Shown here: positions 9,868 through 34,597 of the stretch, piece by piece
How positions within the stretch are numbered: position 1 is the stretch's first letter
How the letters are laid out: each line of letters starts with the position of its first letter
Assembly (NCBI GenBank): GCA_041694835.1
Contig: JBGFRZ010000077.1
Span: 1 to 42,636 of the forward strand
Direction of reading: 5' to 3'
Source of the DNA: Ignavibacteria bacterium
GTDB lineage: Bacteria > Elusimicrobiota > Endomicrobiia > PHAN01
DNA length: 42,636 bases
The notes under the pieces: generated by a model
What the model saw: only the letters and a program-made list of their open reading frames with translations
Databases searched by the model: none
Told to the model about the DNA's origin: nothing
Made by a program: the position numbers and the translations under genes

Positions 9868-9972
9868 AAGAGCACAAGAGCATAAGAACACAAGTGCACA
9901 AGAACACAAGGCGCAAGAGCACAAGGACAGAGGTTTTGACTTGCGCACTTACACCTTAAGCACTTGTGCACT
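9868..9972. repeat. GCACAAGW-type 8-mer tract followed by inverted copies
   Basis: gagcacaagagcataagaacacaagtgcacaag... followed by cttgcgcacttacacctt and gcacttgtgcact. Confidence 0.75.
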
Positions 9973-13003: not shown

Positions 13004-15554
13004 CTGTCTTTCTGCCTTTGAACTCGGCACTCCCGCCGGAGAAACAGGTGAGTTTGCAACACAGCAAAAACATTTTTACGGCGACTACATCTCTGCCGCA
13101 CCCTCGGTTGAAAACAATGTATGGGGCTCTTCGTCAACGATGGTATTTACATTGTTGCCCGATGGGACCACTTCGCATCTTTCTGTGCTAAACATCATCC
13201 CGGGGAATACCTATTATTACTGGTTTGAGTCGCAGGGTATAGATGAGCAGAAAGCACCAGCATTTCGCATGCTCTATGTAAGTAGTTCGTCGCCCGGATA
13301 TGTTATTTTTGACGGCGCCCCATTCTCAACAAACACCCTCATATCACAGGTGACTGTCTGGCACAACTGGGCAGGGCCGCCGCCAGCGCCTTTGAATCTA
13401 ACCTCTTTTTGGTCGGCTGACAACACCTTTATTTCATTGGAGTGGGTCACGCCTCAGTTCTCGGGCCAAAGCATTTTGGATTTGGTTTACGGCGGTGGCT
13501 ATGAAATAGAACGTTCGTCGGTATCTTTCAGTGAAAATATGTTTTTTATTTCATCTATTACGGCCATAACTTCAAATATAAATTACAAAGATTATAATAT
13601 CGTTACTGACACGACTTATTATTACAGAGTTAGAGCGTATGACGCATACCGCCCGCCATTATACTCCACTTTTGCAACAACTATTCCTGAAACACGCAGG
13701 ACATATCTTACGGTTGATTTTATATTAGATGTTTCAAATTTGAAAGATGTAAAAAGCATAAGCATCGTAGGCGATTTTACAACGCCAACATGGTATCCCG
13801 GGAGGCTTTCTCTCTCTAATAGAGGCGACGGAACTTGGGGATTGTCATGGAGCGATGTTTCAATGTATACAGGCGCCGAAATAAAATACAAGTATCTTTT
13901 AAACGACGAAATATATGAAGACGATATGCCGCTTTTTCTTGGAGGGCCGAATAGAGTCGCTGTTTTGAAAGATGAGGGTTTAAGACGAATGACTATAAAA
14001 GACAACTGGTCTGTCTGGACGCCGACGATAACCCCGTCTAACCTCCCAGATTTTATAGTCGGATTTTCCGCCGAGCCCAGAGATAACGTCGTCAGAATCT
14101 CGTGGGATTACGACCCATTCTCTACGGGAACAATCGCCGGTTATTTATTGAGACGTTCTACATCGCCCGGCGGCTATGCCCTGGTTATCGCTTCAACCAA
14201 TGTTTTAGGGCCATCCACTTATTATTTTATTGACACAAATGTTTTAAACTACAACACTTATTATTACGAACTCGCCGCTATGCGCTTAGATGGCAACTTA
14301 ACGGTTTGGTCATACCCTATTAAAGCAATTCCCCCGACGGAAGGGGCATCTGTTCCAATTTATAACGTTGTTTTGGACACTAGATTTTCAGTGGGTGATA
14401 CTTTTGGAATTTTCGGCGACAGAACGGGTGAGGTGAATTTCAAATGGGATACAACTTCAGACGACCCCCAATATGGAAAGGCGAATAAATATGTAGTGAG
14501 ATACTCTACATTTCCAGTAACTGATGCTGCAAAATTCAGAAAGGCAAGGGTCGCGGGTGTTGTCAGAGGTCAAGCCGAGGGACATCATCGCCTTACAACT
14601 CTAAGTCTCGGAGAAAACTGTCCCGGATATTATTTTGTTGTCTGTGCCGTCTACGGCTCATGGCACGTTGTAAGTCTTTCAACTTCTACAATAGTAGTTG
14701 CCCCAAAGCAGTTCAATTCGTCCACACTTTCTGAAATCAGAAAGACAACCCGAAAAACTGGCAATGTTGTGTATTCCCCGGCGGTAGCATCAGTGTCGGT
14801 TCCCAGGGGCGCTTTTCCCAGAGGGGAGTATCTTGGAGTAATTAGAAATTATTACGAGTTGTCGATAGACGCCGGCTATTCCAAAAAAATTTCAGACGCC
14901 AATAAACTTTCAAGAAGCGATGAGAGATTCGGATATCTTCTGGAAAACGAGGCGCCGGAAAGTTCGAGTATATTTGCTTTTGATGTATATGATGTCTCAA
15001 GGAATAATTATTTTGTCGACGCCGATAAATCAGCTAAAAAAGACATAACCGTCTCTATATCTTATGATGGATTAAATATTCCGCCGGAAGAGTTGAAGGT
15101 GGGGGTGCTTAACGAAAAAAATAATTTCTGGCGTATTCTTAAAGACATAAAACCCGAGATTGACCACACAAACAAAGTTGTAAGATTTAAAACAAGGAAT
15201 CTTTCGGTTTATGGATTATTTAAGGCGCCATCTCCTGCGTCGGATCTTTCCAATGTTAAGGTCTATCCAAATCCTTTCAAGCCGACCGACGGACTCGCTG
15301 AAACCGGCGACTATTTTACGGGAATAAAGTTTATAAATCTTACAAGAAACGCGAAAATCCGCATTTACAATATAGCGGGAGAACTTGTAAGAGACAAAGA
15401 TATGAATGCAAATGAATTTGGCGACTGCAGATGGAACGCAAAAAATGACGACGGCGAGTATATCGCCTCGGGGGTTTATGTTTTCGTCGTCAAAGATGAT
15501 ACAATAACCGCAGGTCAAAAGAAGTTTATCGGAAAAGTGGGAATTGTAAGATGA
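12903..15554 (+). CDS. Secreted FN3/CBM20-like protein with C-terminal T9SS type-A/FlgD-Ig-like sorting domain
   Basis: ATG 12903 (MKRFRNF..., parallel to the starts at 1514 and 11592; the ORF is open from 12819). CBM20-like VDFILDV...IKYKYLLND. C-terminus VKVYPNPFKP...IRIYNIAGELVR...WNAKNDDGEYIASGVYVFVV...KVGIVR. Confidence 0.8.
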   Translation: MKRFRNFPPFTIHYSLFAIRYLLLTIAYCLSPIPCLSAFELGTPAGETGEFATQQKHFYGDYISAAPSVENNVWGSSSTMVFTLLPDGTTSHLSVLNIIPGNTYYYWFESQGIDEQKAPAFRMLYVSSSSPGYVIFDGAPFSTNTLISQVTVWHNWAGPPPAPLNLTSFWSADNTFISLEWVTPQFSGQSILDLVYGGGYEIERSSVSFSENMFFISSITAITSNINYKDYNIVTDTTYYYRVRAYDAYRPPLYSTFATTIPETRRTYLTVDFILDVSNLKDVKSISIVGDFTTPTWYPGRLSLSNRGDGTWGLSWSDVSMYTGAEIKYKYLLNDEIYEDDMPLFLGGPNRVAVLKDEGLRRMTIKDNWSVWTPTITPSNLPDFIVGFSAEPRDNVVRISWDYDPFSTGTIAGYLLRRSTSPGGYALVIASTNVLGPSTYYFIDTNVLNYNTYYYELAAMRLDGNLTVWSYPIKAIPPTEGASVPIYNVVLDTRFSVGDTFGIFGDRTGEVNFKWDTTSDDPQYGKANKYVVRYSTFPVTDAAKFRKARVAGVVRGQAEGHHRLTTLSLGENCPGYYFVVCAVYGSWHVVSLSTSTIVVAPKQFNSSTLSEIRKTTRKTGNVVYSPAVASVSVPRGAFPRGEYLGVIRNYYELSIDAGYSKKISDANKLSRSDERFGYLLENEAPESSSIFAFDVYDVSRNNYFVDADKSAKKDITVSISYDGLNIPPEELKVGVLNEKNNFWRILKDIKPEIDHTNKVVRFKTRNLSVYGLFKAPSPASDLSNVKVYPNPFKPTDGLAETGDYFTGIKFINLTRNAKIRIYNIAGELVRDKDMNANEFGDCRWNAKNDDGEYIASGVYVFVVKDDTITAGQKKFIGKVGIVR

Positions 15555-16696
15555 AAAAGACAGAGGTCAGAGGACAGAGTGGCAGAGCACAAGTGCACAA
15601 GAGCACAAGTCAGAGGACAGAGTGGCAGAGCACAAGTGCACAAGAGCAGCAGAGAACAGAGGTCAGAGGACAGAGGTCAGAGGACAGAGAACAGAGGACT
15701 AGTGGCTCGTGGCTCGTGGCTCGTGGTTCGTTTCCTCCAGTCACCAGTCACCAATCTATCCGCTATTTGCTATTTGCTGTTATTTGCGGGATAGCAATCC
15801 AGCCGCTACTATTGCCTATTGCCTCTCTTTACGCTGGTGGCACCACTTCCGCTACATTTTTGAAACTTGGCGTCGGCGCCCGCCCCGTTGCAATGGGCAG
15901 CGCATTTGTCGCAATAGCTGACGATGTCAATTCTATGGTATGGAATCCCGCAGGACTTATAAATATCGGGAAAAAAGAATTTTCATTTATGCATCTTGAA
16001 CATTTTCAGTCCATCAGATATAACTCGCTCAGTTACGCTCAACCAGTCGGAAACAACGTGCTTGGATTTGGCCTCGGATATCTTGCCACCGACGACATAA
16101 GAAGAACATTTATAGACATTAACCAGTATTCTGGTTTCAGGGACGACGGCTCTTATAATATGGAAAATAGAACATTTTTTGCGGCGGGTTCTCGCAAAAT
16201 TGCCGACGATAAATCAGCCGGAGTGCTTGTGAGATGGCTTTCTGAAAAAATAGAGAACCACACTGCTGATGGCTTCGCGATGGATATAGGATATCTCCAT
16301 CTTTTAACCGACAACATTTTATTCGGCTTGAGTGTTCAGAATATAGGGAGTACGCTTAAATTTATCGCCCATCAAGAAAAACTTCCCGTGATATTCAGAG
16401 GGGGATTAGGATTTACTCTTCTTGACGAAAAACTAAAACTTGCTTCTGATATCGTCTGGCCAATTGATTATCAGCCATCTATAAATTTTGGAGGCGAATA
16501 CAAAATTATGGACTTTCTAACGCTCAGATGTGGATGGAGATTTAAGAGTTTGTTTAGAGACGATTATTTAGGTATCATCTCGGCTATAAGCGCCGGTCTT
16601 GGATTTAATTTTTACAACTACTCCATGGATTACGCTTTTGTGCCTTACGGGGACCTCGGATATTCGCACAGAATTTCGCTCGGAGGAAGATTTTGA
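15551..16696 (+). CDS. PorV/PorQ (UPF0164)-like outer-membrane beta-barrel with 95-aa repeat-encoded leader
   Basis: FLKLGVGARPVAMGSAFVAIADDVNSMVWNPAGL signature. C-terminal DYAFVPYGDLGYSHRISLGGRF. ATGA overlap with the upstream stop. Confidence 0.85.
   Translation: MKKTEVRGQSGRAQVHKSTSQRTEWQSTSAQEQQRTEVRGQRSEDREQRTSGSWLVARGSFPPVTSHQSIRYLLFAVICGIAIQPLLLPIASLYAGGTTSATFLKLGVGARPVAMGSAFVAIADDVNSMVWNPAGLINIGKKEFSFMHLEHFQSIRYNSLSYAQPVGNNVLGFGLGYLATDDIRRTFIDINQYSGFRDDGSYNMENRTFFAAGSRKIADDKSAGVLVRWLSEKIENHTADGFAMDIGYLHLLTDNILFGLSVQNIGSTLKFIAHQEKLPVIFRGGLGFTLLDEKLKLASDIVWPIDYQPSINFGGEYKIMDFLTLRCGWRFKSLFRDDYLGIISAISAGLGFNFYNYSMDYAFVPYGDLGYSHRISLGGRF
15559..15830 (+). repeat. Modular tandem-repeat cassette (plus, coding)
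   Basis: CAGAGGW, GCACAAGW, GTGGCTC, CACCAGT and CTATTTG tracts plus an embedded REP-like hairpin. Confidence 0.9.
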
Positions 16697-18909
16697 GAAA
16701 ATCAGAGATGAGAGGACAGAGGACAGAGTGGCAGAGCACAAGTGCACAAGGGCAGAAGTGCACAAGAGCACAAGAACACAAGTGCACAAGGCACAAGTCA
16801 GAGGTCGGAGGTCAGAGGAAAACCTCTCACCTCTCATCTCTCATCTCTCACCTCTATCCACTATTCACTATTCGCTATTTGCTGTTTGCTATCCTCTATC
16901 CTCTATTCTCTATCCTCTATCCTCTGCCTCTACGCTCTGCGACTTTCCCGTCAAGAAACATAACCATTGATGGCGTTCTTTCCGAATGGCACGAGGACGA
17001 ACTCGTCTACGACGACTCACAAAACGACTCCCCCTGGGGCGTTCAAAATGAAATTCACAAACTCTACATGACATGGGACGCTTCCGCACTTTATATCGGA
17101 GTGTCTGGCGTTCAGAAAGACGGCAATAACTTGTTGGTATATATAGACACTTCGCCGCTATCAGGAATAACCGACGCTTCGCTCTTGAGAGAACCGGGCA
17201 ATGCCGCTAATTTATGGTGGTGGCGGCGCGGCAACAAATTCCCTCAGAATTTCCGTCCCGATTTTCAATGGCATATGTATCAGATGGGTTTGCGGCTCAA
17301 TGAAGGTCACGGATTGTTTAAACTCAATCCGGACAATACCACGCAGAATTTAAATGATTATGTTGTTCAAATCGCAACCGGCGGCGGCACTGGAATTTTA
17401 GGCTCGGCGGAAATCAAAATTCCCTGGGGCGTTCTATATGGAGCAGCAGGTTTTCCCGTGGGTCAGGAAATCAAAATTATCGCTATGGTTACCGGCGGCA
17501 TGGATACAAGGGGGACGGCGGATCCATCCGACGATTTGTTTGGTTCGGCACGCGATACAATCCCCGACCAGCACGGTAAATTTCCGGGTGTGTGGTATGA
17601 GTCGTTTCCCGTAGATAACTGGCTGAATATCGATTTAACAACGCTTGCCGACCGCTCGACGATACCGAGAAAATTGAAAGCCGCATCGCTCTCCGAAAGT
17701 CAGGTGAAACTGACATGGCATCACCGTGGAGTCGTTGAAAGGAATCTTGCCGGATTTAACATTTATCATAGCACCAATAACGTTAATTTTGTTCTTTATA
17801 AAAGTGTGATGCCATCTGCAACCTCTTACATTATTCCCGAGCTATCGTCGAATACGACCCACTATTTTCATATAAGAGCCATCTACGGCGGGTTAGAGGC
17901 GGGAAAATCAGAAACCGTCAAGGTTTTTTTAACCCGCCCTTTGATGAGCCATTCGCCGATAGAGGTCTTCGGATTTCCAAGCAGAAATCTGGAATTTAAG
18001 GTGGACGCTCAAGCTGGAATATCTTCGGCGAAATTGTACTACAGATTTGGAAACGAAAGTGAACGGATACAAAATATGACTATAAATGGGGGAACTCTGT
18101 CAACTAGTGTTCTGATGCCTCCATCTGAAGTTGACTTATATTATTATTTTGAAATTAAAAATCCTGTTGGTGCGGTGCATTATCTGCCGTATAACGCCCC
18201 GACGGATGTTTACTCCACAAAAATCAGAAGTGTGGTCAGCTCTTATGCGTCACGGGTTGACGCTCCGTTAAAGTTAGATTTCAGCGGAGACGTTAAAATC
18301 AACTCGCCGGCATATTCTTTGCTCTCGCCCACAACGATATATATGGGTGTTTTAGAAATTGCCGATGTGTCTATTGAAAGTTCTGCGGCTCCGCCAGTCA
18401 TTTTTTACGAGTTATATACATTAAATAAGCGCGGCGATAAAGTCGGCTTAATTTTTGCGCACCCTGTATCTATCACTCTCAGATACTTTGACGAAGATAT
18501 TGTGGGGTACGATGAGAGTAAACTCGCTATTTACAGGATTGATGGAAAAAATCTCACTCGCATTGGTGGAACGGTAAATGCTTCTGAAAACACTATAACA
18601 GCCACTGTAAGTCATCTTTCAAAATTCGGGATTTTCCATGAACTCACATCGCCTACTGCCGTGTCGGAACTAAGGCGTGTCATAAGACCCGTTTTTAACC
18701 CCGGCAAAAACGAGGTTGTCGAGTTTGACGCTCCTGGCATCGTCTCTTTCAAGATATTTGACCTAAATGGACAGGAGATATTTTCGTCGGAAAGAAATTT
18801 CTGGGACGGACGGAATTCGGCGGGGGTTATCGTTATGCCGGGTATTTATGTGTATCGGCTTGAAATTGGCACAAGAAAAATCTACGGCAGTTGCGTGGTG
18901 GTAAGATAG
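16693..18909 (+). CDS. Secreted DOMON/CBM9-like + FN3 protein with C-terminal sorting-like domain and repeat-encoded leader
   Basis: Start is TTG 16693 (overlaps upstream stop) or ATG 16708. ITIDGVLSEW...NEIHKLYMTWDASALYIGV, FN3, and C-terminal FNPGKNE...KIFDLNG...WDGRNSAG...PGIYVYRL...VVVR. Confidence 0.8.
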   Translation: MRKSEMRGQRTEWQSTSAQGQKCTRAQEHKCTRHKSEVGGQRKTSHLSSLISHLYPLFTIRYLLFAILYPLFSILYPLPLRSATFPSRNITIDGVLSEWHEDELVYDDSQNDSPWGVQNEIHKLYMTWDASALYIGVSGVQKDGNNLLVYIDTSPLSGITDASLLREPGNAANLWWWRRGNKFPQNFRPDFQWHMYQMGLRLNEGHGLFKLNPDNTTQNLNDYVVQIATGGGTGILGSAEIKIPWGVLYGAAGFPVGQEIKIIAMVTGGMDTRGTADPSDDLFGSARDTIPDQHGKFPGVWYESFPVDNWLNIDLTTLADRSTIPRKLKAASLSESQVKLTWHHRGVVERNLAGFNIYHSTNNVNFVLYKSVMPSATSYIIPELSSNTTHYFHIRAIYGGLEAGKSETVKVFLTRPLMSHSPIEVFGFPSRNLEFKVDAQAGISSAKLYYRFGNESERIQNMTINGGTLSTSVLMPPSEVDLYYYFEIKNPVGAVHYLPYNAPTDVYSTKIRSVVSSYASRVDAPLKLDFSGDVKINSPAYSLLSPTTIYMGVLEIADVSIESSAAPPVIFYELYTLNKRGDKVGLIFAHPVSITLRYFDEDIVGYDESKLAIYRIDGKNLTRIGGTVNASENTITATVSHLSKFGIFHELTSPTAVSELRRVIRPVFNPGKNEVVEFDAPGIVSFKIFDLNGQEIFSSERNFWDGRNSAGVIVMPGIYVYRLEIGTRKIYGSCVVVR
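16702..16930 (+). repeat. Modular tandem-repeat cassette (plus, coding)
   Basis: CAGAGGA, GCACAAGW, CTCTCAY, CTATTCR and CCTCTAT tracts. Confidence 0.9.
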
Positions 18910-19160
18910 AGGACGGAGATGAGAGGACAGAGGACAGAGTGGCAGAGCACAAGTGCACAAGAGCACAAGTGCACAAGAGCAGCAGAGAACAGAGAACAGG
19001 AGAGAGAGAACAGAGGATTAGTGGCTCGTGGCTCGTGGCTCGTGGCTCATTTCCTCCAGCCACCATCCACAAGTCACCAGTCACCAATCTATCCGCTATT
19101 CGCTATTTGCTATTTGCTATTCACTATCCCCTATACCCTATCCCCTATCCCCTACCTTTA
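18908..19160 (+). repeat. Modular tandem-repeat cassette (plus, coding)
   Basis: CAGAGGA, GCACAAGW, CAGAGAA, GTGGCTC, CACCAGT, CTATTTG and CCCTATC tracts. Confidence 0.9.
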
Positions 19161-20010
19161 CGCTTTCTACGAGCCCGGCATCTCGGCAAACGCGCTTTCG
19201 CGCGCGAGCGGCGGCTCCGGCGGACTTTCAAGCAAAAATGCATGGCTCAATCCCGCCCTTGCGGGACTATCTGAGAAAGTAGTAGAAGTCCATACAAATT
19301 ACAGAAAATTCTTTTTAGGGATGCCTTATGAAAAAGATATTCCCGGCTACATTGCCCCGGACATAAGCGAAAAAAACGTCTCTTTATTCGTGCCTGTTGA
19401 GGGTTTATCAGGTGGAGTTTCTTTTTCAGACGTGTCGTTGACCAACACATATTCGCAAAGCGTTTACGCTTTGTATCTTGCGAAATCACTTAAAGATGTA
19501 ATATATACCACCGACTTTGAGGATATTTATCTGGGTCTTTCGCTCAAATACGTTAGCATCAGTTACGAACCAGATGAATATACAAGAGAATTTTTCGCTA
19601 AATATTCAAGCAACAAAGGGGCTTTAACGGGGGATTTCGGGGTATTGTACAAAAGAGATTCTTTCGGCGCTGGAGTTTCAGTCAAAAATTTCATTCCATC
19701 AAATATTGGAATATATGAAAATGTTGGTATCCCCGCCAAAATTCTTATGGGAGTTTCGAAGAAAATGTCGAATTTTAATATTCAACTCGACGCACTGTTT
19801 GATAATTCCAGGAGAAATTATGACATAATGCCATCTATTGAACTTCATCTTTTCAAGGTCTCCTGGCGCGCCGGCCTGGGCCTTTCAAAAATCACGACGG
19901 GCTTCGGGATTTCTTGGGGTGACCTTGATATGGATTTCGCTTTTGTCTACCCTTACAGGATGGAAGGAAATTTTCTGGATGCCGTCGTTGGATTGAGTTA
20001 TAGGATGTAA
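18919..20010 (+). CDS. Divergent PorV/PorP-like outer-membrane beta-barrel with repeat-encoded leader
   Basis: GISANALSRAS...AWLNPALAG echoes the ARxxAMG...NPAGL motif. Alternating beta-strands. Ends VVGLSYRM. Confidence 0.65.
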   Translation: MRGQRTEWQSTSAQEHKCTRAAENREQERENRGLVARGSWLVAHFLQPPSTSHQSPIYPLFAICYLLFTIPYTLSPIPYLYAFYEPGISANALSRASGGSGGLSSKNAWLNPALAGLSEKVVEVHTNYRKFFLGMPYEKDIPGYIAPDISEKNVSLFVPVEGLSGGVSFSDVSLTNTYSQSVYALYLAKSLKDVIYTTDFEDIYLGLSLKYVSISYEPDEYTREFFAKYSSNKGALTGDFGVLYKRDSFGAGVSVKNFIPSNIGIYENVGIPAKILMGVSKKMSNFNIQLDALFDNSRRNYDIMPSIELHLFKVSWRAGLGLSKITTGFGISWGDLDMDFAFVYPYRMEGNFLDAVVGLSYRM

Positions 20011-20026
20011 CGACAATCGGTAATCT

Positions 20027-20080
20027 GTGGCTGGTGACTCGTGACTGGTGACTGGAGGGAACAAACCACGAGTCACGAGT
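20027..20080 (-). repeat. Short cassette fragment in minus orientation
   Basis: gtggctggtgactcgtgactggtgactggagggaacaaaccacgagtcacgag is the reverse complement of the GTGGCTC/CACCAGT block. Confidence 0.75.
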
Positions 20081-20087
20081 ATTTGAT

Positions 20088-22641: not shown

Positions 22642-22908
22642 CGGATAGAGATGAGAGGTGAGAGAATAGCGTATAGAGAATAGAGGATAGCAAACAGCAA
22701 ATAGCGAATAGTGAATAGCAAATAGCAAATAGTGAATAGCGAATAGCAAATAGTGGATAGAGGAGGAAGGTGAGAGATGAGGGGTTTTTCCCTGACTTCT
22801 GACCTCTGACCTCTGTCCCCTGACCCCTGTCCTCTGTTCTCTGCTGCACTTGTGCTCTTGTGCACTTGTGCTCTGCCACTCTGTCCTCTGACTTATGCTC
22901 TTGTGCTT
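22642..22908 (-). repeat. Full modular cassette in minus orientation (intergenic)
   Basis: 22647-22796 is the exact reverse complement of 27710-27859. Confidence 0.92.
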
Positions 22909-22917
22909 GGAGGGAAA

Positions 22918-24698: not shown

Positions 24699-24752
24699 TA
24701 ACAAGTAGCGAGTCGTGGGTAGATACTATATAGGGAAATAGAGGATAAAATT

Positions 24753-26234
24753 ATGAAACTAAAAAGTCAGAGCAATAGAGCAATAGAGGAGCAGAGCAGA
24801 GTGAGTATAGAGTACAGAGGACAGAGAACAGAGAACAGAGGATTAGTGGCTCGTGGCTCGTGGTTCGTTGCTCGTTGCTCATTTCCTCCAGCCACCAGCC
24901 ACAAGTCACCAGTCACCAACCACTATTCGCTATTTGCTATTCGCTCTCCTTACTTCCTACTCCTTACTTCTTACTTCTTACTTCTACCTATAAGTGGATG
25001 CGTCCCGAAGGTGAAAGAAGCGATAGCCGACGGAAAAAAGGTCATCACCATCTGGGAAACATATAATAACGAAGAACACGAATGTTTTAAGGAAATAGTC
25101 GCTGAATTTGAAAAGGCAAATCCCGACATAAAAATCAAAGTTCAAAGAATTCCTTTTGACCAGCATGTAACAAAACTTAAGGTCGCAATGATTACTCACA
25201 CCGCGCCGGATATAGCGCGCGTTGATGTGGCTTTTATGCCGCGACTTGTAAAATCCAAGGCAGTCATAAATCTGGCCGACTACGGCGCCGCGAAATTAAC
25301 GACGGAACTCGTTCCCGCTGCAATCAACTCGAATATTTTTGACGAAAGTTTCTATGTTAGCGGCTCCTCATCTGACAAAAAAGGCGTTTTTGGAATTTCA
25401 GACCAGACTACGGGTGTTGCTTTGTTTTACAACAAAAAACTTTTTGCCAAAGCGGAAATTTCCGCCCCGCCTAAAACATGGAGCGAGTTTATATCTGTAG
25501 CTAAAAAACTTACCAAAGACACCGACGGCGATAAAAAAATCGACCAATACGGATTTGCCGCCGATTTGTCTTTATGGTGGACATTTCCGTTCTTTAACAC
25601 TTATGGTGTTCGATTTATAAGTCCCGACGGCAAGTCATGTCTCCTGGATTCTAAAAACGCAAGAGACGCTCTTCAGTTGAAAGTGGATTTATATAAGAAA
25701 TACGAGGTCGAAGCCGGTGCCTGGCAATCCGGAGCCATCAGCCCGGATACTGGATTTATAAATCAAAAGTATGCAATGATTTTTTCCGGGCCGTGGAATC
25801 TTAAAAGATTCAAAAACGCGAAACTACCATTTGGAGTGGCGCTTATACCGTCTGGGCCTGCCGGAACATCTACGAATGTTGGGGGCACTAATATGACGGT
25901 TTTTAGGACCTCTAAATATCCGCAGGAGGCATATAAATTTCTTGCATATCTTGTTTCCCCAAAAGTGCAGAAAAAATGGGCGGAATCCCTTAGTCAGATA
26001 CCTGTTAACCTAAAGTCATACTCAATGGTTGACACGTCCAAACTTCCGGAATTGCAAGTATTTATGGAGCAGATGAAAACGGCCGTAGCCAGGCCACCCG
26101 TACTTGATTACGACGAACTGGAAAACATAATGAACTCGGAGATGTATGCCGCCTTGTCGGGACAAAAAACTGTCGAACATGCACTAAAAGATGCTGTCAA
26201 AGAAATCGATAAGAGGGTATTGAGTTTTGAATAG
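24753..26234 (+). CDS. Sugar ABC transporter substrate-binding lipoprotein with repeat-encoded leader
   Basis: GAGGA RBS. Lipobox-like ISGC at residue 83. FEKANPDIKIKV, LFYNKKLF, PPKTWSEF and AMIFSGPW motifs of SBP family 1. Confidence 0.9.
   Translation: MKLKSQSNRAIEEQSRVSIEYRGQRTENRGLVARGSWFVARCSFPPATSHKSPVTNHYSLFAIRSPYFLLLTSYFLLLPISGCVPKVKEAIADGKKVITIWETYNNEEHECFKEIVAEFEKANPDIKIKVQRIPFDQHVTKLKVAMITHTAPDIARVDVAFMPRLVKSKAVINLADYGAAKLTTELVPAAINSNIFDESFYVSGSSSDKKGVFGISDQTTGVALFYNKKLFAKAEISAPPKTWSEFISVAKKLTKDTDGDKKIDQYGFAADLSLWWTFPFFNTYGVRFISPDGKSCLLDSKNARDALQLKVDLYKKYEVEAGAWQSGAISPDTGFINQKYAMIFSGPWNLKRFKNAKLPFGVALIPSGPAGTSTNVGGTNMTVFRTSKYPQEAYKFLAYLVSPKVQKKWAESLSQIPVNLKSYSMVDTSKLPELQVFMEQMKTAVARPPVLDYDELENIMNSEMYAALSGQKTVEHALKDAVKEIDKRVLSFE
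24767..24990 (+). repeat. Modular tandem-repeat cassette (plus, coding)
   Basis: CAGAGAA, GTGGCTC, CACCAGY, CTATTYG and TACTTCY tracts. Confidence 0.9.
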
Positions 26235-26515
26235 AGGCGAGAGATGAGATGAGAGCACAAGGCACAAGTGCACAAGAGCAGAAGTCAGAGGATAGAGGCC
26301 AGAGTGGCAGAGCACAAGTGCACAAGAGCACAAGTGCAGCAGAGAACAGAGGACAGAGAACAGAGAACAGAGGTCAGAGGTCAGGGAAAAACCCCTCATC
26401 TCTCACCTTCCTCCTCTATCCACTATTTGCTATTCGCTATTCACTATTTGCTATTTGCTATTCACTATTCGCTATCTGCTATTTGCTATTCGCTATCTGC
26501 TACCTTCCACCTTCT
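26235..26515 (+). repeat. Modular tandem-repeat cassette (plus, coding)
   Basis: 26246-26351 is identical to 27520-27625, and 26380-26475 is identical to 27710-27805. Confidence 0.92.
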
Positions 26516-27505
26516 GTTTACGCGGCGCCCCACCACACTATAACCATTGATGGCGATTTATCCGAGTGGGCGTCGGACGAATTGAGAGTTTCCGACGAAA
26601 ACGACTCCGTATGGGACCCGGGGACTGGACTTAATGAAATAAAAAATGTTTTTATCACATGGGATGTGTCCGCATTGTATATTGGTGTTGAAGGGAAAGT
26701 TACCAACAATGGTTTGCTCATTTTTATCGACAGCGGAAGAAACGCGGGTTTTAGCGATTTAAGGCAAATCAATACATGGAACAGAAAGGCAAAATTCAGC
26801 GGATGGTCGCCGGATTTCTTTTACGGAGCATGGGACGGCTCCAACGGAAATTTTTACAGAATTGCTTCGTCGCAAACGGTAGCGGATGTCACGGGTCGGG
26901 TGGCATTGAAAAATTCAAAAAGTTCCTTGCGTCCCGGATGGGAAATTAGAATTCCTTTTGACCTTATTTATTCGATGGGAAATTCCGTGCCGCGAAATAC
27001 TCAAATTAAGTTGTGCGCCGCCATCGTAACAGGCGATGTAGGGAGTGATTCTTACGGTAACTACGGCTATATCGGAGGCGACACCGCACCAAATAATACA
27101 TTTACTGGTTTGGCCGAAGCTACGCTGGGGAGTTTCGGAGTCATTATGTTAGATAAAAATTCCGACGGGCTACCCGACGATTCATTTGCAGGAATAACCT
27201 TAAACCTAAGCGAAATAAAAATAACACCCGTTAGATTTGCCCCAAAAATATATACGAATGCGGTTGTCTCATTCAATATTTCAAAAGCAGCAAAGGCATC
27301 TGCATCTGTATATGATTTGAACGGAAAACTTGTAAAATCGCTTTCAGAGTCTGTTGGTTCGACGGATTTTCAAAAATCCTATCTTTGGGATGCTAAGGAC
27401 ACCGACGGAAGACATGTTGACGGAGGAGTTTATATAGTGAACATAAAAGCCGAGACATCGACCGAAAGCCGAAGGGTTAACAAAGCGCTCGTGGTGATAA
27501 GATGA
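26249..27505 (+). CDS. Secreted DOMON/CBM9-like protein with C-terminal FlgD-Ig/T9SS-like sorting domain and repeat-encoded leader
   Basis: ITIDGDLSEW...NEIKNVFITWDVSALYIGV (paralog of 16693). C-terminal VYDLNGKLVKSL...WDAKDTDG...GGVYIVNI...VVIR. Confidence 0.8.
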   Translation: MRAQGTSAQEQKSEDRGQSGRAQVHKSTSAAENRGQRTENRGQRSGKNPSSLTFLLYPLFAIRYSLFAICYSLFAICYLLFAICYLPPSVYAAPHHTITIDGDLSEWASDELRVSDENDSVWDPGTGLNEIKNVFITWDVSALYIGVEGKVTNNGLLIFIDSGRNAGFSDLRQINTWNRKAKFSGWSPDFFYGAWDGSNGNFYRIASSQTVADVTGRVALKNSKSSLRPGWEIRIPFDLIYSMGNSVPRNTQIKLCAAIVTGDVGSDSYGNYGYIGGDTAPNNTFTGLAEATLGSFGVIMLDKNSDGLPDDSFAGITLNLSEIKITPVRFAPKIYTNAVVSFNISKAAKASASVYDLNGKLVKSLSESVGSTDFQKSYLWDAKDTDGRHVDGGVYIVNIKAETSTESRRVNKALVVIR

Positions 27506-28719
27506 AAAAACAGAGGACAGAGATGAGAGCACAAGGCACAAGTGCACAAGAGCAGAAGTCAGAGGATAGAGGCCAGAGTGGCAGAGCACAAGTGCACAAG
27601 AGCACAAGTGCAGCAGAGAACAGAGAACAGAGAACAGAGAACAGAGAACAGAGAACAGAGGACAGGGGTCAGGGGCCAGGGGACAGAGGACAGAGGTCAG
27701 AGGTCAGAGGTCAGGGAAAAACCCCTCATCTCTCACCTTCCTCCTCTATCCACTATTTGCTATTCGCTATTCACTATTTGCTATTTGCTATTCACTATTC
27801 GCTATTTGCTGTTTGCTATCCTCTATTCTCTATACGCTATTCTCTCACCTCTCATCTCTCGCCTCCCTCCTCTATTCGCTATTTGCTATTTGCTATTTGC
27901 TATTCTACCTTCTACCTTCTGGCGTCTACCTTTTACCTTTTACCTGCTGTTTACGGGGCTTTTGAATCTGCACATATTACATCGCCGAGAATTTTGTCAA
28001 TGGGTGGTGCGGGAGCTGCGTTATCAAACGATGCGGCGGCGGTAAACATAAATCCAGCGGGACTCGTTCAAATTGAAAAATCAGAGTTGAACGCTTCATA
28101 TTCGAACATATACAATGCCGATGGACTTTTCAGAGGATATATCGCTTATGCAGCTGCTCCCGAAAGCAACGGCATCGGAGTATCATGGAGTAGACTTTCC
28201 CTTCCCGGAATTTATGCAGAAGACATATTCGCTTTTGCAGTCGCTCGCCAACTTTCAGATGAAGTCGCAGCCGGGCTTTCCATAAAAATATTTTCCAATG
28301 AAGTCATAGGCTCAGAATATGATTTTTACGGCAAAAGAAAGTATGCCGCGGGATATGATATCGGGATTCTTTATCAGTTTACTTCCGACTGGATAGCAGG
28401 AATTTTGTACGAAAATCTGAACGAGCCTGCAATTTCAAGCGAGGACAAGAAATTGAAATCGTCGTTAAAAATCGGCATACGGTTTCATCCATTTGAAAGC
28501 GGGGTTATCGTTGCGGATTTTGATATAAGAAGAAATGCATATTTTGCAGGTTTTGAGACAATTATAGGCAAAGTATTTTGCGTGAGAATCGGAATGAACG
28601 ACTTAAGACCGACTTTCGGATGTGGCATAACCTACGGTTTATTTACATTTGATTTGGGGCTCCTTTCCGATAATAATCTCGGATTTCTGACGCAAGCAGG
28701 TGTAAGAATCAGAATATGA
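27502..28719 (+). CDS. PorV/PorQ (UPF0164)-like outer-membrane beta-barrel with about 150-aa repeat-encoded leader
   Basis: SPRILSMGGAGAALSNDAAAVNINPAGL signature. ATGA overlap with the upstream stop. Confidence 0.8.
   Translation: MKKQRTEMRAQGTSAQEQKSEDRGQSGRAQVHKSTSAAENREQRTENREQRTEDRGQGPGDRGQRSEVRGQGKTPHLSPSSSIHYLLFAIHYLLFAIHYSLFAVCYPLFSIRYSLTSHLSPPSSIRYLLFAICYSTFYLLASTFYLLPAVYGAFESAHITSPRILSMGGAGAALSNDAAAVNINPAGLVQIEKSELNASYSNIYNADGLFRGYIAYAAAPESNGIGVSWSRLSLPGIYAEDIFAFAVARQLSDEVAAGLSIKIFSNEVIGSEYDFYGKRKYAAGYDIGILYQFTSDWIAGILYENLNEPAISSEDKKLKSSLKIGIRFHPFESGVIVADFDIRRNAYFAGFETIIGKVFCVRIGMNDLRPTFGCGITYGLFTFDLGLLSDNNLGFLTQAGVRIRI
27511..27945 (+). repeat. Longest modular tandem-repeat cassette (plus, coding)
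   Basis: GCACAAGW, six CAGAGAA units, CAGGGGN, CAGAGGT, CTCTCAY, CTATTYR and TACCTTY tracts. Confidence 0.92.
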
Positions 28720-30461
28720 AAAATACAGGCACAAGAGCACAAGTGCACAAGGCACAAGAGCAGAAGTCAGAGGACAGGGGACAGAGTGGCAGAGCACAAG
28801 TGCACAAGAGCACAAGTGCAGCAGAGAACAGAGGATTAGTGGCGCGTGGCTCGCGGCTCGTTTCATCCAGTCACCAGTCACCAGTCACCAGTCACTATCG
28901 CCTATCGCCTATTGCCTATTGCCTATTTTTTACTATTGCCTATCGCCTATTGCCTATTGCCTGCCTTTACGCGGCAGGAATAGGTGGATTTTATGAAACA
29001 GAATTTGTTGCTCAGAAGGAATCTGATTTCAGATGGAATCTTACAACCCCTAAACATTATTTCCAGGGTAAGTTCTGGGCCAATCCTCTTTACGGAACGG
29101 AGTTATACGCCCAGGCTTCCGCAAGGACAAATGAAATCTGGAACAAAAGGGAGTACTTTGATTTTGAGAGGGGATGGGTAAAATACTGGTTCAAAATGGG
29201 TGAGTCGTTGATATTAATAAAAGAGGAAAGACACTGGCTCGACTCGCCTCTTTTAAAAAACGTAGCCCAACACAAGGCAGCTCACTTCAACGAAGCATTA
29301 TCTGCAAGATTGAACATATTCAAACTCGGGCCTTTTTACGGAAGTTTCATTTTTACTCATAATCTACCTTTTGAAAATCTCAGGGAGTGGTACGGAAATT
29401 ATTTCGATGAAGCAAGCCGAAGTTTTATATCGAAAATAGGATTTTCTCTGAACCCGCGAATGAGTTTTATAGAAAAAATATCGCTTGGCGGTGGATATTT
29501 ATTGAAAAATTTCGAACAAAAAAAATTCAATATCGAAAGAAATTTCATCTCAAAACATAATATTAAAAATGACATTGTTTTTTTTGATTTTAAATCAGTG
29601 TTTGAAAACGGGGCGTTTACGGCCGAAGCGGCAAAAAGTTCGAAAAAAGGCTCTGTCAATTCACCGTCAATATACGAGGATGAAAATGCCTACGCTTTCG
29701 AACTTCGCGACTTGAATATAGGAGCGTTTAGATTTCAGTCAAGGTTTTACAGTTACGGAGACGGCTACAGGAACGAGTTTTCAAGAAACTTCGGAAGGCT
29801 CACCAGAGACGGTAACGACTCCGAGAAAGAATTCGGCCGAAGAGGATATTATTTTGAATCGTCTTATCTTTGGCCGAAAAAAATGATAACCTTCACATAT
29901 AAGCGCGGCGAATACACTACAAGGTTCGATTACATCACAAACTATCAGGGTGTGCGTGAGGATTACATAATATACAAAATGATAACTCCTTATTCCGTGA
30001 CATATAATGCTGTGGAGTCGTGGATAGATTTCAAAAACGGAATAAAAAACAGAATTGCCGTCGAACAAAGCCGCAATAGGGGGGGGGAGTTTCCCGGGTT
30101 CCTTTTCGAGTTGTCAGGAGATACCGAGGACATTTATTCACGTATTCAATTCCGACTGAAGGATATAGGGTCAAGTGTCGGTTTTGGTGAAAGACGAATC
30201 CTAAGCGCCGAGGCTAAATACAACATCATGAACGACCTTCAGTTTTACACCCGTGCAGCGGTTGTCGAAAGTCTCCATAAAAATAAAAACTGGTCAAGCG
30301 CTTTTTTCCAGTTGAGATACTTTATCGGATGGGACATAGAAGGATATCTTGAATACGGAGAGGGGTGGCATACGGACACACTCTCCTACGACACAGACAT
30401 CACCGATTACGAACGTGATATAGCCCAAAAAATAAGATTGGTTTTTAAGATAAACTTTTAA
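28716..30461 (+). CDS. Probable outer-membrane beta-barrel/porin with repeat-encoded leader
   Basis: Leader ends CLYA. Aromatic-rich alternating strands. C-terminal KIRLVFKINF ends in Phe. ATGA overlap. Confidence 0.65.
   Translation: MKNTGTRAQVHKAQEQKSEDRGQSGRAQVHKSTSAAENRGLVARGSRLVSSSHQSPVTSHYRLSPIAYCLFFTIAYRLLPIACLYAAGIGGFYETEFVAQKESDFRWNLTTPKHYFQGKFWANPLYGTELYAQASARTNEIWNKREYFDFERGWVKYWFKMGESLILIKEERHWLDSPLLKNVAQHKAAHFNEALSARLNIFKLGPFYGSFIFTHNLPFENLREWYGNYFDEASRSFISKIGFSLNPRMSFIEKISLGGGYLLKNFEQKKFNIERNFISKHNIKNDIVFFDFKSVFENGAFTAEAAKSSKKGSVNSPSIYEDENAYAFELRDLNIGAFRFQSRFYSYGDGYRNEFSRNFGRLTRDGNDSEKEFGRRGYYFESSYLWPKKMITFTYKRGEYTTRFDYITNYQGVREDYIIYKMITPYSVTYNAVESWIDFKNGIKNRIAVEQSRNRGGEFPGFLFELSGDTEDIYSRIQFRLKDIGSSVGFGERRILSAEAKYNIMNDLQFYTRAAVVESLHKNKNWSSAFFQLRYFIGWDIEGYLEYGEGWHTDTLSYDTDITDYERDIAQKIRLVFKINF
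28727..28965 (+). repeat. Modular tandem-repeat cassette (plus, coding)
   Basis: GCACAAGW, GTGGCTC-like, CACCAGT and CCTATYG tracts. Confidence 0.9.
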
Positions 30462-30462
30462 T

Positions 30463-30700
30463 CAGAGATTAGAGATGAGAGAACAGAGAACAGAGTGGCA
30501 GAGCACAAGTGCACAAGAGCAGAAGTCAGAGGACAGAGGACAGGGGACAGGGGACAGAGGATTAGTGGCTCGTGGCTCGTGGCTCGTGGCTCGTGGTTCG
30601 TTGCTCGTTGCTCATTTCCTCCAGCCACCAGCCACAAGTCACCAGTCACCAATCTATCCGCTATTTGCTATTTGCTATTTGCTATTTGCTATCCCCTGCC
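30463..30700 (+). repeat. Modular tandem-repeat cassette (plus, coding)
   Basis: CAGAGAA, GCACAAGW, CAGGGGA, GTGGCTC, CACCAGY and CTATTTG tracts. Confidence 0.9.
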
Positions 30701-32634
30701 TTTATGGCAGGATACCGCCCAGCGTTGTCGACGGTAAAATAGAGTTTGTTTTTATTCATAGAACGGCAAAAAGCGTTTCTATCGCTGGCGAATTCAACAA
30801 CTGGACGCCCGAAAGGGACTTTCTGAAATACCACGCAGAACGCGATCTTTGGTTCATAAGATTAAAATTGCCCGTCGGAAGATACGAATACAAATACTTG
30901 ATAGACGGAAAATGGCTCGAAGGAGCAAATTTAACTGTTGAAATAAAAGAAAAAGACGGAGTCCTCTTTATTCCCAAGCCGCGGGTACCGCCGCCGAATA
31001 CGCCGTTTTCAGGCAAGATTCATTTCAACGGTAAAATCATGGGCATTGCCGGCTACGACATCAACGATTCAAGTATATCGGGGGAAAATTTTCACGCCGA
31101 CTTTGATTGGCATATATCGGCATCAAAAGATATAACGGCTTTTGCCAGAATAGAATACGATTATTCGCGAGAACCTCAAAGGCTCCTTTTCAAACAGGGC
31201 CATCTGAATATAGAGCCTGAACCGCTAAAAGACATTGAATTTAACGCTAAAGCGTTTTATAAAACAAAATCTATTCAATTTAATAATCCGCTGAAAATGA
31301 CCGATAGATATGTCGGACTTAAATACGAAGTCGTTGAATTTTACGACGAGACAAGCCCGCAGAAAGCATTCGGGCTCTGGGAACAAGGGATAGTAACTCA
31401 ACTGCGGTTTTTCGGTGGAGATTTGACGGCTTTCTATGCGGATATGTTAAGACCTGCCACATATTTTAACACTCTTGAAGACAACTTCGGCGTCAGATAT
31501 TTTTATAAAATAAAAAATTTGCCGTTTGGTTTTGGTGCAACATATCTGGGAACGCGTGGGGGATGGTGGCCTTATGCCAATATGGACAACAACTGGTTTC
31601 CTGATCCGGAAAAATTCGGAGGATACTCTTCCTCGGGTCCCATAAGAAACATCGCACAGCCGTGGTACAGAGGATACTTAAACAATGATTTTACCGGATT
31701 TGACGCGAGATTTTATTTTTTGCCGTGGATGGAGTTTTTTGCGGAATCAACAAGTAGAAAAACTGTTCTAAAAACAGAGCGGATATCAGGCGATATTCCT
31801 TTTGAGAAAACCTGGGTTCTCGAAAAAAACAATATTCTGCTCTACGGAACAAAAATAAAATTGAGCGAAAATTTTGCAGTTGAGTTGAGTCAAAAAAACG
31901 AGAGTATTTCATTTAAATCGCCTTTAAGTCCAACAGATATTGCAACAGACAGAAAAACTTTTAACACAGTTGCGCGCTATGATGACAAAAAATTTACCGT
32001 CGGTATATCATATAAAAACGCCGACTCCGGCAAAATAAGTGGTGGAATGCCGCTCGACATTCATCCGTTCAGAAGACAGATTCTTTACGATGGACTATTT
32101 CCTTACAGCGCAACAACTCTCGGACATTTGCTCCATATCGTCGGAAGCGAAACGTTCTATATGCCGTTTATTTCGTATCGTTCGGAGAAATTCGACATAA
32201 CACTCAAAAGTAAATTATTGTCTTTTATGGTTTTACCTGAAAGCCGCGATACTCTATCCGGCGTTCGACTTTCGGCCGAAGGCGATACGCGACGTTTGTC
32301 GCTCACGCAAAATGTTGGAACACTATCGACTAAAATCATCGACAATCTCTATCTTGAGAACTCCGTCAGATATCTCACATGGGAAACTCCGGATATGTCC
32401 AAATTTTATCTTACGGACTTCCATGCTTTGAAATACAAGTTTACGGATAACTTTTCCGTCAAATTCGGCTATGGATTTGACCCCGAGGATTTTGATGATG
32501 ATATACTCGCCGACTTTGACAGACGAGAAGTATTTTTATATAATGAAAGTATAAAATACGGCGATGTTTTATCCGCCGAAGAAAAGTTATCTAAACTAAA
32601 CAGAGTTACAATAAGGACGGTGTTCAGGTTTTAA
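30475..32634 (+). CDS. CBM48-like glycogen-binding domain fused to a probable outer-membrane beta-barrel, with repeat-encoded leader
   Basis: AKSVSIAGEFNNW...LPVGRYEYKYLIDGKW, then a Pro-rich linker and about 530 aa of alternating strands ending RVTIRTVFRF. Confidence 0.75.
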   Translation: MREQRTEWQSTSAQEQKSEDRGQGTGDRGLVARGSWLVARGSLLVAHFLQPPATSHQSPIYPLFAICYLLFAIPCLYGRIPPSVVDGKIEFVFIHRTAKSVSIAGEFNNWTPERDFLKYHAERDLWFIRLKLPVGRYEYKYLIDGKWLEGANLTVEIKEKDGVLFIPKPRVPPPNTPFSGKIHFNGKIMGIAGYDINDSSISGENFHADFDWHISASKDITAFARIEYDYSREPQRLLFKQGHLNIEPEPLKDIEFNAKAFYKTKSIQFNNPLKMTDRYVGLKYEVVEFYDETSPQKAFGLWEQGIVTQLRFFGGDLTAFYADMLRPATYFNTLEDNFGVRYFYKIKNLPFGFGATYLGTRGGWWPYANMDNNWFPDPEKFGGYSSSGPIRNIAQPWYRGYLNNDFTGFDARFYFLPWMEFFAESTSRKTVLKTERISGDIPFEKTWVLEKNNILLYGTKIKLSENFAVELSQKNESISFKSPLSPTDIATDRKTFNTVARYDDKKFTVGISYKNADSGKISGGMPLDIHPFRRQILYDGLFPYSATTLGHLLHIVGSETFYMPFISYRSEKFDITLKSKLLSFMVLPESRDTLSGVRLSAEGDTRRLSLTQNVGTLSTKIIDNLYLENSVRYLTWETPDMSKFYLTDFHALKYKFTDNFSVKFGYGFDPEDFDDDILADFDRREVFLYNESIKYGDVLSAEEKLSKLNRVTIRTVFRF

Positions 32635-32636
32635 TT

Positions 32637-32800
32637 AGAGGTGAGAGATGAGAGGACAGAGAACAGAGAACAGGGAACAGAGAACAGAGAACGAGGGACA
32701 GAGAAAAAACTCACCTCTCATCTCTGACCTCTCACCTCTGACCTCTCATCTCTCATCTCTCAACTCTCGTCTCTATTTGCTATTCATTATTTGCTATCTT
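32637..32800 (+). repeat. Modular tandem-repeat cassette (plus, coding)
   Basis: CAGAGAA, CTCTCAY/CTCTGAC and CTATTTG tracts. Confidence 0.88.
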
Positions 32801-33139
32801 ATATTAACAGCTTGCGCGACGCTTGACATCGTCAAAGATCGCATCCAATCGCCTGTTGTCGTCGGCAATAAAGTCACTTTTTATTATGACTCGGTATCGG
32901 CCAAATCGGTATCTGTGGCAGGCGAGTTTAACGGATGGGAATTCAGAACTGAACAACGACGCTCCCTTATTATGAAAAAAAACAAAGATGGTGTCTGGCA
33001 GGTTTCAGCCGAAATTCCACACGGAAGATATCAGTATAAAATTGTCGTAGATTATCAAACATGGCTCATTGACCCATATAATCCGAGTGCCGTTGACGAC
33101 GGAACTGGAAATATAAATTCTTTGCTTGTTGTTAAATAG
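32648..33139 (+). CDS. Small CBM48 (AMPK-beta-like glycogen-binding) lipoprotein with repeat-encoded leader
   Basis: Lipobox LTAC at residue 56. AKSVSVAGEFNGW...GRYQYKIVVD...DPYNP...INSLL. Confidence 0.85.
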   Translation: MRGQRTENREQRTENEGQRKNSPLISDLSPLTSHLSSLNSRLYLLFIICYLILTACATLDIVKDRIQSPVVVGNKVTFYYDSVSAKSVSVAGEFNGWEFRTEQRRSLIMKKNKDGVWQVSAEIPHGRYQYKIVVDYQTWLIDPYNPSAVDDGTGNINSLLVVK

Positions 33140-34575: not shown

Positions 34576-34597
34576 ACTAATACACTAGGAGATTCTG

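Follow-up and report, generated by a model that had tools for sequence, protein, structure and literature searches.

Nine genes on contig JBGFRZ010000077.1 of an uncultured Ignavibacteria bacterium (GenBank assembly GCA_041694835.1; placed in the Elusimicrobiota by GTDB) open with long leaders written in tandem words of 7 and 8 nt. We analysed the whole contig (42,636 nt, referred to as the window; contig C62 in our numbering) together with the genome to which it belongs (1.9 Mb, 89 contigs, 42.5% GC). Clusters of such words, here called cassettes, occur throughout this genome. Where a cassette precedes a gene on the same strand, the frame of that gene is the one most often kept open from an ATG at the 5' edge of the cassette, and in the window the hydrophobic part of the cassettes occupies the position of the signal peptide in orthologous proteins. 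With some reserve, we favour the explanation that the cassettes are invasive or slippage-driven word-repeat elements, similar in behaviour to the Rickettsia palindromic elements (RPE), which have been kept where they are harmless and reused as signal peptides read from the 5' ATG.

Leaders written in 7- and 8-nt words

An earlier note on this DNA, made from the letters alone, had described nine open reading frames (ORFs) that begin with 7/8-nt word tracts. All nine are present in the ORF table as claimed, with tracts extending over 55–152 codons. The order of the tracts is (GCACAAGW)n/(CAGAGRA)n, then (GTGGCTC)n, then (CCAGYCA)n and finally T-rich words, namely CTATTYG, CTATTGC, CTATCCT and CTCACCT. 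The tracts of the window are mostly short (2.3–13 copies) and impure (63–100% matches). Of the 124 arrays that Tandem Repeats Finder (TRF) detected in the window, 82 have period 7 or 8; three shuffled versions gave 4–9 arrays each, including 2–4 with period 7/8. The gene calls were made for this analysis, and the hydrophobicity and cleavage-motif calls are our own heuristics; both are caveats to the interpretation given here.

For each leader we counted the residues up to the predicted cleavage site (↓) or lipobox, beginning at the first ATG; all nine are on the plus strand. The first (95 aa, 15551..15835) belongs to a PorV-like (UPF0164) barrel and ends in SLYA↓GGTTSATF. It is followed by those of an Fn3 surface protein (78 aa, 16708..16941; the gene was listed at 16693, which is a TTG start, with an in-frame ATG also at 16708), a PorP/SprF-like barrel (82 aa, 18919..19164, ending in YLYA↓) and a solute-binding lipoprotein (82 aa, 24753..24998, lipobox ISG↓C). 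The leader of a protein with FlgD_ig and C-terminal domain (92 aa, 26249..26524) shares two blocks of 100% identity with that of the adjacent barrel protein (152 aa, 27502..27957). The remaining three are found at 28716..28973 (86 aa), in a 719-aa protein bearing CBM48 (78 aa, 30475..30708, ending in CLYG↓) and in a small CBM48 lipoprotein (55 aa, 32648..32812, lipobox LTA↓C). The Pfam families of the cargo are UPF0164/PorV-like, PorP_SprF, FlgD_ig and C-terminal domains of the type IX secretion system (T9SS), SBP_bac_1, CBM48 and amylase with Fn3, and by these assignments the cargo proteins are of envelope types.

A genome of the same family carries a syntenic locus with orthologues of all nine genes. 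These orthologues have ATG starts and ordinary signal peptides of 24–45 aa, their mature parts align directly after the predicted sites, and the word tracts end exactly at the same point. For the 28716 protein, CLYA↓AGIGGFYETEF is aligned with AAWA↓SSVGIGGYYETEF; at another cleavage site SVYA↓APHHTITIDG is aligned with LLFS↓APRHTITVDG. Both lipoboxes coincide with lipoboxes of the orthologues (LTA↓CATLDIVKDRI with FSG↓CATFNIIRDRI, and ISG↓CVPKVKEAIADG with VGG↓CVRKAKEPIADG). Relatives of the 15551 barrel that are more distant have a plain signal peptide, with a GGAGG Shine–Dalgarno (SD) site in front of it. A homologue search with the mature 28716 protein retrieved 9 proteins, the closest with 62% identity, and no strain-level variant of the leader was among them; one homologue bears a source name belonging to the Elusimicrobiota. 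In eight database homologues of this protein the N-termini extend about 20–45 residues before the conserved mature sequence, as read from the printed sequences.

The hydrophobic tract thus coincides with the core of the orthologues' signal peptides, which supports the earlier proposal that the tracts are translated as leaders. Because the T-rich tract occupies the signal-peptide position of the orthologues and the cargo belongs to envelope families, it would have to be translated for export. A start 3' of the cassette was considered and rejected, since the alignments leave no space for another signal peptide.

Other properties were compared with those of export signals. A hydrophobic h-region is located directly before the mature domain, at the homologues' position, and in most leaders a single hydrophobic segment terminates at the 3' end of the cassette. 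The N-terminal extension is net-positive, with a charge of +1 to +7 in all 24 extensions scored. The recurrent (C/Y)LYA-type ending has A, G or S at −1 and L or V at −3, according to heuristic motif calls; L at −3 of a signal-peptidase site is tolerated. Sec and lipoprotein signal peptides are usually about 18–35 residues long, and none of the nine leaders, read from the 5' ATG, falls within this range. Short forms of 24–38 aa are found at 1514, 11592 and 12903. Array use varies even within one family: 11 of the 15 PorV-like paralogues of this genome have a period-7/8 array of at least 18 nt before the mature part, and three have none but carry plain signal peptides of about 23–26 residues, as read from the printed N-termini. 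The paralogues form a continuum of array use. Shared c-region DNA was discarded as proof of recent copying, as wobble positions differ among the LYA codons and LYA-like endings occur in relatives too.

The earlier note had further argued that word tracts of 7 or 8 nt encode a peptide without stops in all three frames. This argument is correct: 17 of 17 forward words tested are without stops in every frame. Among their reverse complements, 11 contain stops and six are stop-free. It was also right in stating that 26380-26475 and 27710-27805 are identical in sequence, are read in different frames by their two genes and are hydrophobic in both. The full identical blocks are 26246-26351 = 27520-27625 and 26368-26475 = 27698-27805, and the spacers separating them differ in length by 56 nt (8 units). 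Copying of blocks among adjacent unrelated genes is supported by these 100% identical stretches of 26249 and 27502.

The frame was examined for 49 cassettes with a downstream gene on the same strand. We scored each frame for an ATG located between −60 and +40 nt relative to the cassette 5' end from which translation is open through the whole cassette. Such an ATG is present in the gene frame of 29 of the 49 cassettes, as compared with six of the 98 off-frames (Fisher p 3.7e-12) and 9 of 93 frames in antisense cassettes. Counted by ATG, 29 of 35 qualifying codons are in the gene frame (binomial p 2e-9). No stop interrupts 37 of the 49 gene frames or 49 of the 98 off-frames, but openness alone is weak evidence, given that many frames of the repeats are open anyway. 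Selection to maintain read-through from the 5' ATG into the cargo is indicated by the excess of in-frame ATGs.

The 29 cassettes with a 5' ATG in the gene frame (class A) all carry a hydrophobic word tract, which is located within the TRF-defined cassette in 24 and just beyond it in five, and they commonly end in a (C/Y)LYA-like motif. An SD-like motif precedes the 5' ATG in 12 of the 29, compared with 266 of 3437 internal ATGs. At 15551, 27502 and 28716 the ATG overlaps the upstream stop as ATGA; these overlaps, reported before, agree with the ORF table. Because of the frame test, the SD-like motifs and the ATGA overlaps, we assign the probable start to the 5' ATG.

At 15548-15554 the upstream stop reads AGATGA, whereas a relative (L003) has AGATAA. 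The overlapping ATG, from which the long leader is read, owes its existence to this one-base difference. The relative has its own ATG between its two word arms. Comparison of the two sequences suggests that the overlapping ATG at 15551 may be recent.

Cassettes in spacers, enzymes and related genomes

Analysis of the whole genome with TRF gave 2238 rows, with 800 arrays of period 7 and 403 of period 8. The period-7/8 arrays merge to 757 clusters covering 38,001 nt, or 2.0% of the genome, and dozens of word types are represented. Tandem 7-nt arrays are enriched far above chance and are found mostly in spacers. We define a cassette as a merged cluster of period-7/8 TRF arrays of at least 70 nt, with the orientation assigned from a word list. 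There are 167, distributed over 52 of the 89 contigs: 47 are co-oriented with the co-directional genes that flank them, 28 run antisense to both neighbours, 5 have another context, 13 are inside ORFs and the word list gave no orientation for 74. The antisense cassettes in the class comparisons number 31.

Enrichment of plus-oriented cassettes at exported genes had been suggested as a check. A bias does exist (47 co-oriented and 28 antisense), but it is modest (p 0.04) and is no proof of function. Co-orientation as such a proof was rejected, since after subtraction of the 29 translated cassettes 20 co-oriented ones stand against 31 antisense.

Arrays within genes were counted for genes of at least 150 aa, read from the first ATG. 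In 82 of 1338 an array of at least 21 nt begins in the first 60 codons, a list which includes some false positives, for example an antisense cassette read 5' of the true start. A hydrophobic segment is found in that region in 61 of these 82. A further 82 of the 1338 genes have arrays deeper in the ORF.

Twenty co-oriented cassettes (class B) are located 5' of the gene's own ATG and are often followed by a GGAGG site. The genes behind them are mostly cytoplasmic. Family scans covered 15 of the 20 downstream proteins; four short ORFs were left out and 12903 was scanned separately. The proteins are GltX, phosphatidylserine decarboxylase, a solute-binding protein with its own signal peptide, a bacterial microcompartment shell protein, HisI, acyl carrier protein, a Clp ATPase, two Wzz proteins, a histidine kinase, MreC, QueA, PGK, ArgG and an Na/Pi transporter.

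Among the 13 cassettes inside ORFs, those in six enzymes are in frame and divide the Pfam match into two stretches around the insert. They are located in GltX (C6:8914-9105; contig number and positions), HisF (C28:56978-57244), ValS, which has two (C49:20437-20513 and 20663-20781), a PALP enzyme (C73:15354-15507), a protein of the metalloenzyme superfamily (C87:4643-4819) and a BcrAD/BadFG activase (C73:26955-27024). These inserts consist of purine words and CTCACCT-type words, giving SHLSPLT-like peptides, and contain no CTATTTG words of the LFAICYL type. Their composition fits a tolerance filter by which hydrophobic words would persist only where a membrane-inserting segment is wanted.

The notion of a dedicated portable export tag is not supported, in view of the 31 antisense cassettes, the untranslated spacers before pgk, argG, queA, acpP and clp, and the in-frame inserts in enzymes. 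The earlier note had named random frame and occurrence irrespective of export as observations that would speak against its proposal. The frame is not random (29 of 49 versus six of 98), whereas the cassettes are indeed not export-specific.

Two orphan cassettes of the window illustrate the antisense class. Both have the complete word order and no cargo. One (22647..22871, minus strand) is flanked by a plus-strand GGDEF gene and an ABC permease, the other (34282..34578, minus strand) by two plus-strand genes. ORFs at 22556-22879 (minus strand, 107 aa) and 33833-34561 (minus strand, 242 aa) cross them into the antisense of real genes, and both are likely false gene calls of the kind that automatic annotation would make. 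The 242-aa ORF is not regarded as a gene because stop-free repeats produce artefact ORFs.

The two arms of a cassette are partly complementary. Read from the sequence, GTGGCTC/CAGCCAC and CAGAGGT/CTCACCT match in 6 of 7 positions. In CAGAGGT/CTCACCT and CAGAGGA/CTATCCT the purine arm has C at its mismatched position, and full complementarity (G or T there) would make TGA or TAG; such a stop-avoiding mismatch is seen in two of the three arm pairs looked at. Many cassettes have one arm only, while class B cassettes have nested arms surrounding a loop. Compared with arm-preserving shuffles, 39 of 93 cassettes have z < −2, with 13 of 29 in class A, 12 of 20 in class B, 4 of 13 among the internal and 10 of 31 among the antisense cassettes. 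The clearest hairpin is the orphan at 34282-34578 (z −4.65 with dinucleotide shuffles, and −6.15). Hairpin character is frequent but not universal. A single conserved regulatory RNA fold was rejected, as three cassettes gave z values of +1.09, −1.76 and −4.65 with dinucleotide shuffles and the genome-wide picture is mixed.

The words themselves are specific to the lineage, judging from searches of 30 relatives: (CTATTYG)x2.7 has 102 matches here and 0 in those genomes, and (GTGGCTC)x2.5 has 19 here and 1 there. The 15551 orthologues of two same-family genomes have h-regions in words of their own (CACTTTTK and CACTAWC, respectively) and complementary purine words 5' of the ATG. Two other orthologues contain a hairpin within the ORF, running from ATG-AAT-AAA through (GGGTTYA)n and a T-rich loop to (CCCTAWA)n-LYA. 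By sequence comparison this is the same architecture in a different vocabulary, and among the independent lines of support for the design it is the best available.

The cassette-led genes of the window make up a single long cell-surface locus for the handling of starch or glycans (1514-36940, plus strand). It contains a 2740-aa amylase/Fn3 protein, CBM48 proteins, an alpha-amylase, an ABC sugar uptake system, T9SS-like barrels and C-terminal-domain proteins, and two GGDEF genes are located in its middle (20088-22641). No tRNA or tmRNA was found in the window, and a scan against Rfam gave no match at the gathering threshold.

Shorter tracts at further genes of the locus are real as well. This holds for the CTATTTG-type tracts reported before for the genes at 1514, 11592 and 12903. 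One of 4.3 copies (1538..1567, plus strand) forms the h-core of the 26-aa signal peptide of the 2740-aa protein, which starts at ATG 1514; another of 4.3 copies (11616..11645, plus strand) is the h-region of the 24-aa signal peptide of gene 11592. The FlgD_ig/T9SS C-terminal-domain protein at 12903 has a 38-aa signal peptide (MKRFRNF...CLSA; 12903..13016, plus strand) with a core composed of CACCATT, ATTCGCT and CTATTGC words. Purine-word arms with an inner GTGGCTC/CCAGCCA hairpin are located 5' of this ATG (12694..12884, plus strand); an in-frame stop separates this purine part from the 12903 ORF, and it is untranslated. An octamer tract (AAGAGCAC; 9868..9925, plus strand) lies in frame between ATG 9842 and a later ATG. 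The later ATG heads an ordinary-looking signal peptide, so that translation of the tract is ambiguous. In the 12903 orthologue of a related genome (joined stretch L013+L014, positions ~10335-10500) the leader has a duplicated YLRPQGATL(H/L) segment, a repeat of longer period at the same signal-peptide position.

Start codons and alternative explanations

In the scheme that we favour, a cassette consists of tandem 7/8-nt words, with a purine-rich arm (GCACAAGW, CAGAGRA, GTGGCTC) followed by a pyrimidine- or T-rich arm (CCAGYCA, CTATTYG, CTCACCT). Cassettes would spread and grow in gene spacers in both orientations, probably by local copying and slippage. As the forward strand is stop-free in all frames, they could persist in coding DNA wherever the added peptide is tolerated, and the signal peptide would be the most tolerant site. 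The T-rich words would supply Leu, Phe, Ile, Ala, Cys and Tyr for the h-region, and the purine words Lys, Arg, Glu and Gln for a disordered, net-positive N-terminal extension with peptides such as QRTEWQSTSAQEHK. Translation of the nine window genes, and of at least 29 genes in the genome as a whole, would begin at the ATG at the 5' edge and run through the entire cassette. The resulting Sec or lipoprotein precursor, whose n-region would be very long, would be exported and cleaved at the conserved (C/Y)LYA-type site or lipobox, the c-region being kept by selection as xLYA or lipobox.

Several observations weigh against this scheme. The leaders of 55–152 aa far exceed the 24–45 aa of the orthologues. 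In-frame ATG, GTG or TTG codons are found inside 28 of the 29 class A leaders, about ten of them with an SD-like motif upstream, and such internal starts make shorter products possible. Three of the 29, including that of 27502, have two hydrophobic segments, which is awkward for a cleaved signal with its N-terminus inside. The frame test excludes the 74 of 167 cassettes without assigned orientation, and its cassettes are in part copies of one another, as neighbours share blocks, so that they are less independent than the p-values suggest. As for the hairpin, the 15551 leader as a whole is no better folded than its dinucleotide shuffles (z +1.09), and only about half of the two-armed cassettes out-fold arm-preserving shuffles.

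The 152-aa leader of 27502 deserves a separate remark. A second in-frame ATG at codon 8 is equivalent to the start of 26249. The two separate hydrophobic segments extend over approximately residues 84-111 and 126-150; if both were inserted, the cargo would be placed on the wrong side of the membrane. This arrangement hints at a late start or at a first segment that does not insert.

A start inside the cassette is the main alternative, although we consider it unlikely as a general explanation. The purine arm would then be mainly a 5' untranslated region or a dispensable upstream reading, and translation would begin at an in-frame GTG of (GTGGCTC)n, or at an internal ATG or TTG, yielding a signal peptide of ~25–50 aa such as M-ARGSWLVARGS...LYA. 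Every frame contains a GTG or TTG wherever three or more 7-nt units are present, so that an internal start would survive unit slippage, and (CAGAGGA)n provides an SD-like GAGGA immediately 5' of (GTGGCTC)n, even though the spacing from GAGGA to the first GTG is just 3 nt. In 18919, 24753, 28716 and 30475 the first GTG following ...AGAGGATTA is in frame. Elsewhere, an SD-backed internal ATG is located just before the basic or hydrophobic part (...KMVARGSW at C81:9078 and ...GMEIFIQF at C55:35871). The 12903 gene employs an ATG 3' of its purine arms, the short signals of the orthologues point the same way, and the two segments of 27502 suit a late start better. However, internal initiation does not explain the excess of stop-free, in-frame 5' ATGs over the off-frames, and no SD-backed internal start precedes the core in 16708 (only TTG at codon 58), in 26249 (GTG at codon 24 and TTG at codon 79) or in C75:28504 (none). 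The 5' ATG and internal starts may be used side by side.

A bolder version of the favoured scheme, for which we see about as slim a chance, holds that the word lexicon itself has been shaped for reading of one strand in every frame, the hairpin cassettes serving as a genome-wide, frame-proof source of export signals. The GTG and TTG codons that recur every three units would be spare in-frame starts, blocks would be copied between neighbours, and start codons would move upstream. Envelope proteins could in this way gain or swap leaders, with export surviving unit slippage.

The earlier note had favoured a dedicated portable export tag doubling as a slipped-strand ON/OFF switch for surface proteins, in the manner of Neisseria opa. 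Non-triplet units do occur in the 5' coding region of envelope-protein genes, their tracts are frame-invariant, neighbouring unrelated genes have identical blocks, and the CTCTT repeats in the leader region of opa, as described in the account that we cite, set a precedent (PMC3960869). Against this stand the 31 antisense or orphan cassettes, the others that precede cytoplasmic genes, and the in-frame inserts in the essential enzymes GltX, HisF and ValS, where switching would harm; the cassettes are not confined to surface genes. Further, the assembly has all 29 classified leader genes in frame, the tracts are short and impure, and the same genes have ordinary signals in relatives. As a tag that doubles as a switch the cassettes are improbable, and an ON/OFF switch in particular looks unlikely.

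In 19 of 178 contig ends a period-7/8 array is found within 150 nt, as compared with ~8 expected. It seems that the assembly breaks at cassettes, and additional copies could be missing. That the leaders are artefacts of misassembled repeats, or of gene calling where stop-free repeats extend any frame, is nevertheless most improbable: off-frames are open too (49 of 98), spurious ORFs do cross orphan cassettes such as that at 33833-34561 (minus strand), and repeats do accumulate at contig ends, but the in-frame ATG excess is restricted to the gene frame, unique sequence flanks the cassettes in 52 of 89 contigs, essential enzymes stay in frame despite their inserts, and a related genome has the same design with other words.

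Comparison with known systems, and significance

The extended signal peptide region (ESPR) of autotransporters is a conserved motif of ~25 residues that extends the Sec signal peptide N-terminally. It resembles the leaders in being an unusually long N-terminal extension before the n-, h- and c-regions, but it is not a translation of low-complexity repeats.

Among repeat systems, the opa genes of Neisseria come close in the location of their CTCTT pentamer 'coding repeat', which lies in the region for the leader peptide (PMC3960869). There, too, a non-triplet tandem repeat in the signal-peptide coding region encodes hydrophobic leader residues, and a change in unit number shifts the frame of the cargo. 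In opa, according to the same account, a single pure tract occurs in one gene family of a host-adapted pathogen, and its switching has been measured. Here, many 7/8-nt words in fixed order encode long charged extensions on unrelated cargo, and they are found in spacers and essential enzymes as well.

The RPE are described in a review of miniature inverted-repeat elements as a dispersed palindromic family of ~150 bp with a conserved peptide (PMC10969869). In this description they are present between genes and, in frame, within unrelated genes, to which they add a tolerated peptide; the cassettes show the same dispersal. The review passage does not present them as tandem 7/8-nt words and reports no role as signal peptides (PMC10969869). 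We liken the cassettes to RPE by description, and relatedness in sequence is not expected.

Heptamer repeats have been described between genes, namely TAACTGA in Beggiatoaceae, cyanobacteria and Bacteroidetes (PMC4679880), and GGGAATC/GGGGAYT in Xanthomonas and Nostoc (PMC4692102). As far as these accounts go, such repeats are likewise abundant and lineage-restricted, mostly between co-directional genes and often just 5' of start codons. They consist of one dominant word per genome, which contains stops (TAACTGA) or forms G-quadruplexes, and occur less often than expected within coding sequence. In the present genome at least 17 words are combined in two-armed cassettes, of which dozens are translated; the cassettes are neither single-word repeats nor rare in coding DNA.

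The tandem repeats of Borgs create disordered regions, and the repeat units within ORFs are all divisible by three (PMC9879509). The published description shares with our case fast-evolving repeats in spacers and ORFs, with the carrier proteins enriched in extracellular and signal-peptide types. Here, however, the units are 7 and 8 nt, and the frame is kept by total length alone. We found no description of multi-word 7/8-nt cassettes read as signal peptides in the literature searched, although supplementary tables (e.g. of PMC4679880) may hold relevant cases. None of the known systems compared joins such cassettes with systematic use as signal peptides.

The cassettes provide a warning for the annotation of uncultured phyla: genes may be mis-started, leaders of 100 aa may be missed by predictors, and orphan cassettes give rise to false ORFs. 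They also offer testable material on the n-region length and charge that the Sec pathway tolerates. If the favoured explanation is correct, non-triplet tandem repeats can be stably translated at scale, in dozens of genes including essential ones. The genetic code itself would make a purine/pyrimidine hairpin resemble a signal peptide, as T in the second codon position gives hydrophobic and A polar residues. This would open a route by which selfish or slippage-driven repeat DNA may remodel signal peptides and shift start codons.

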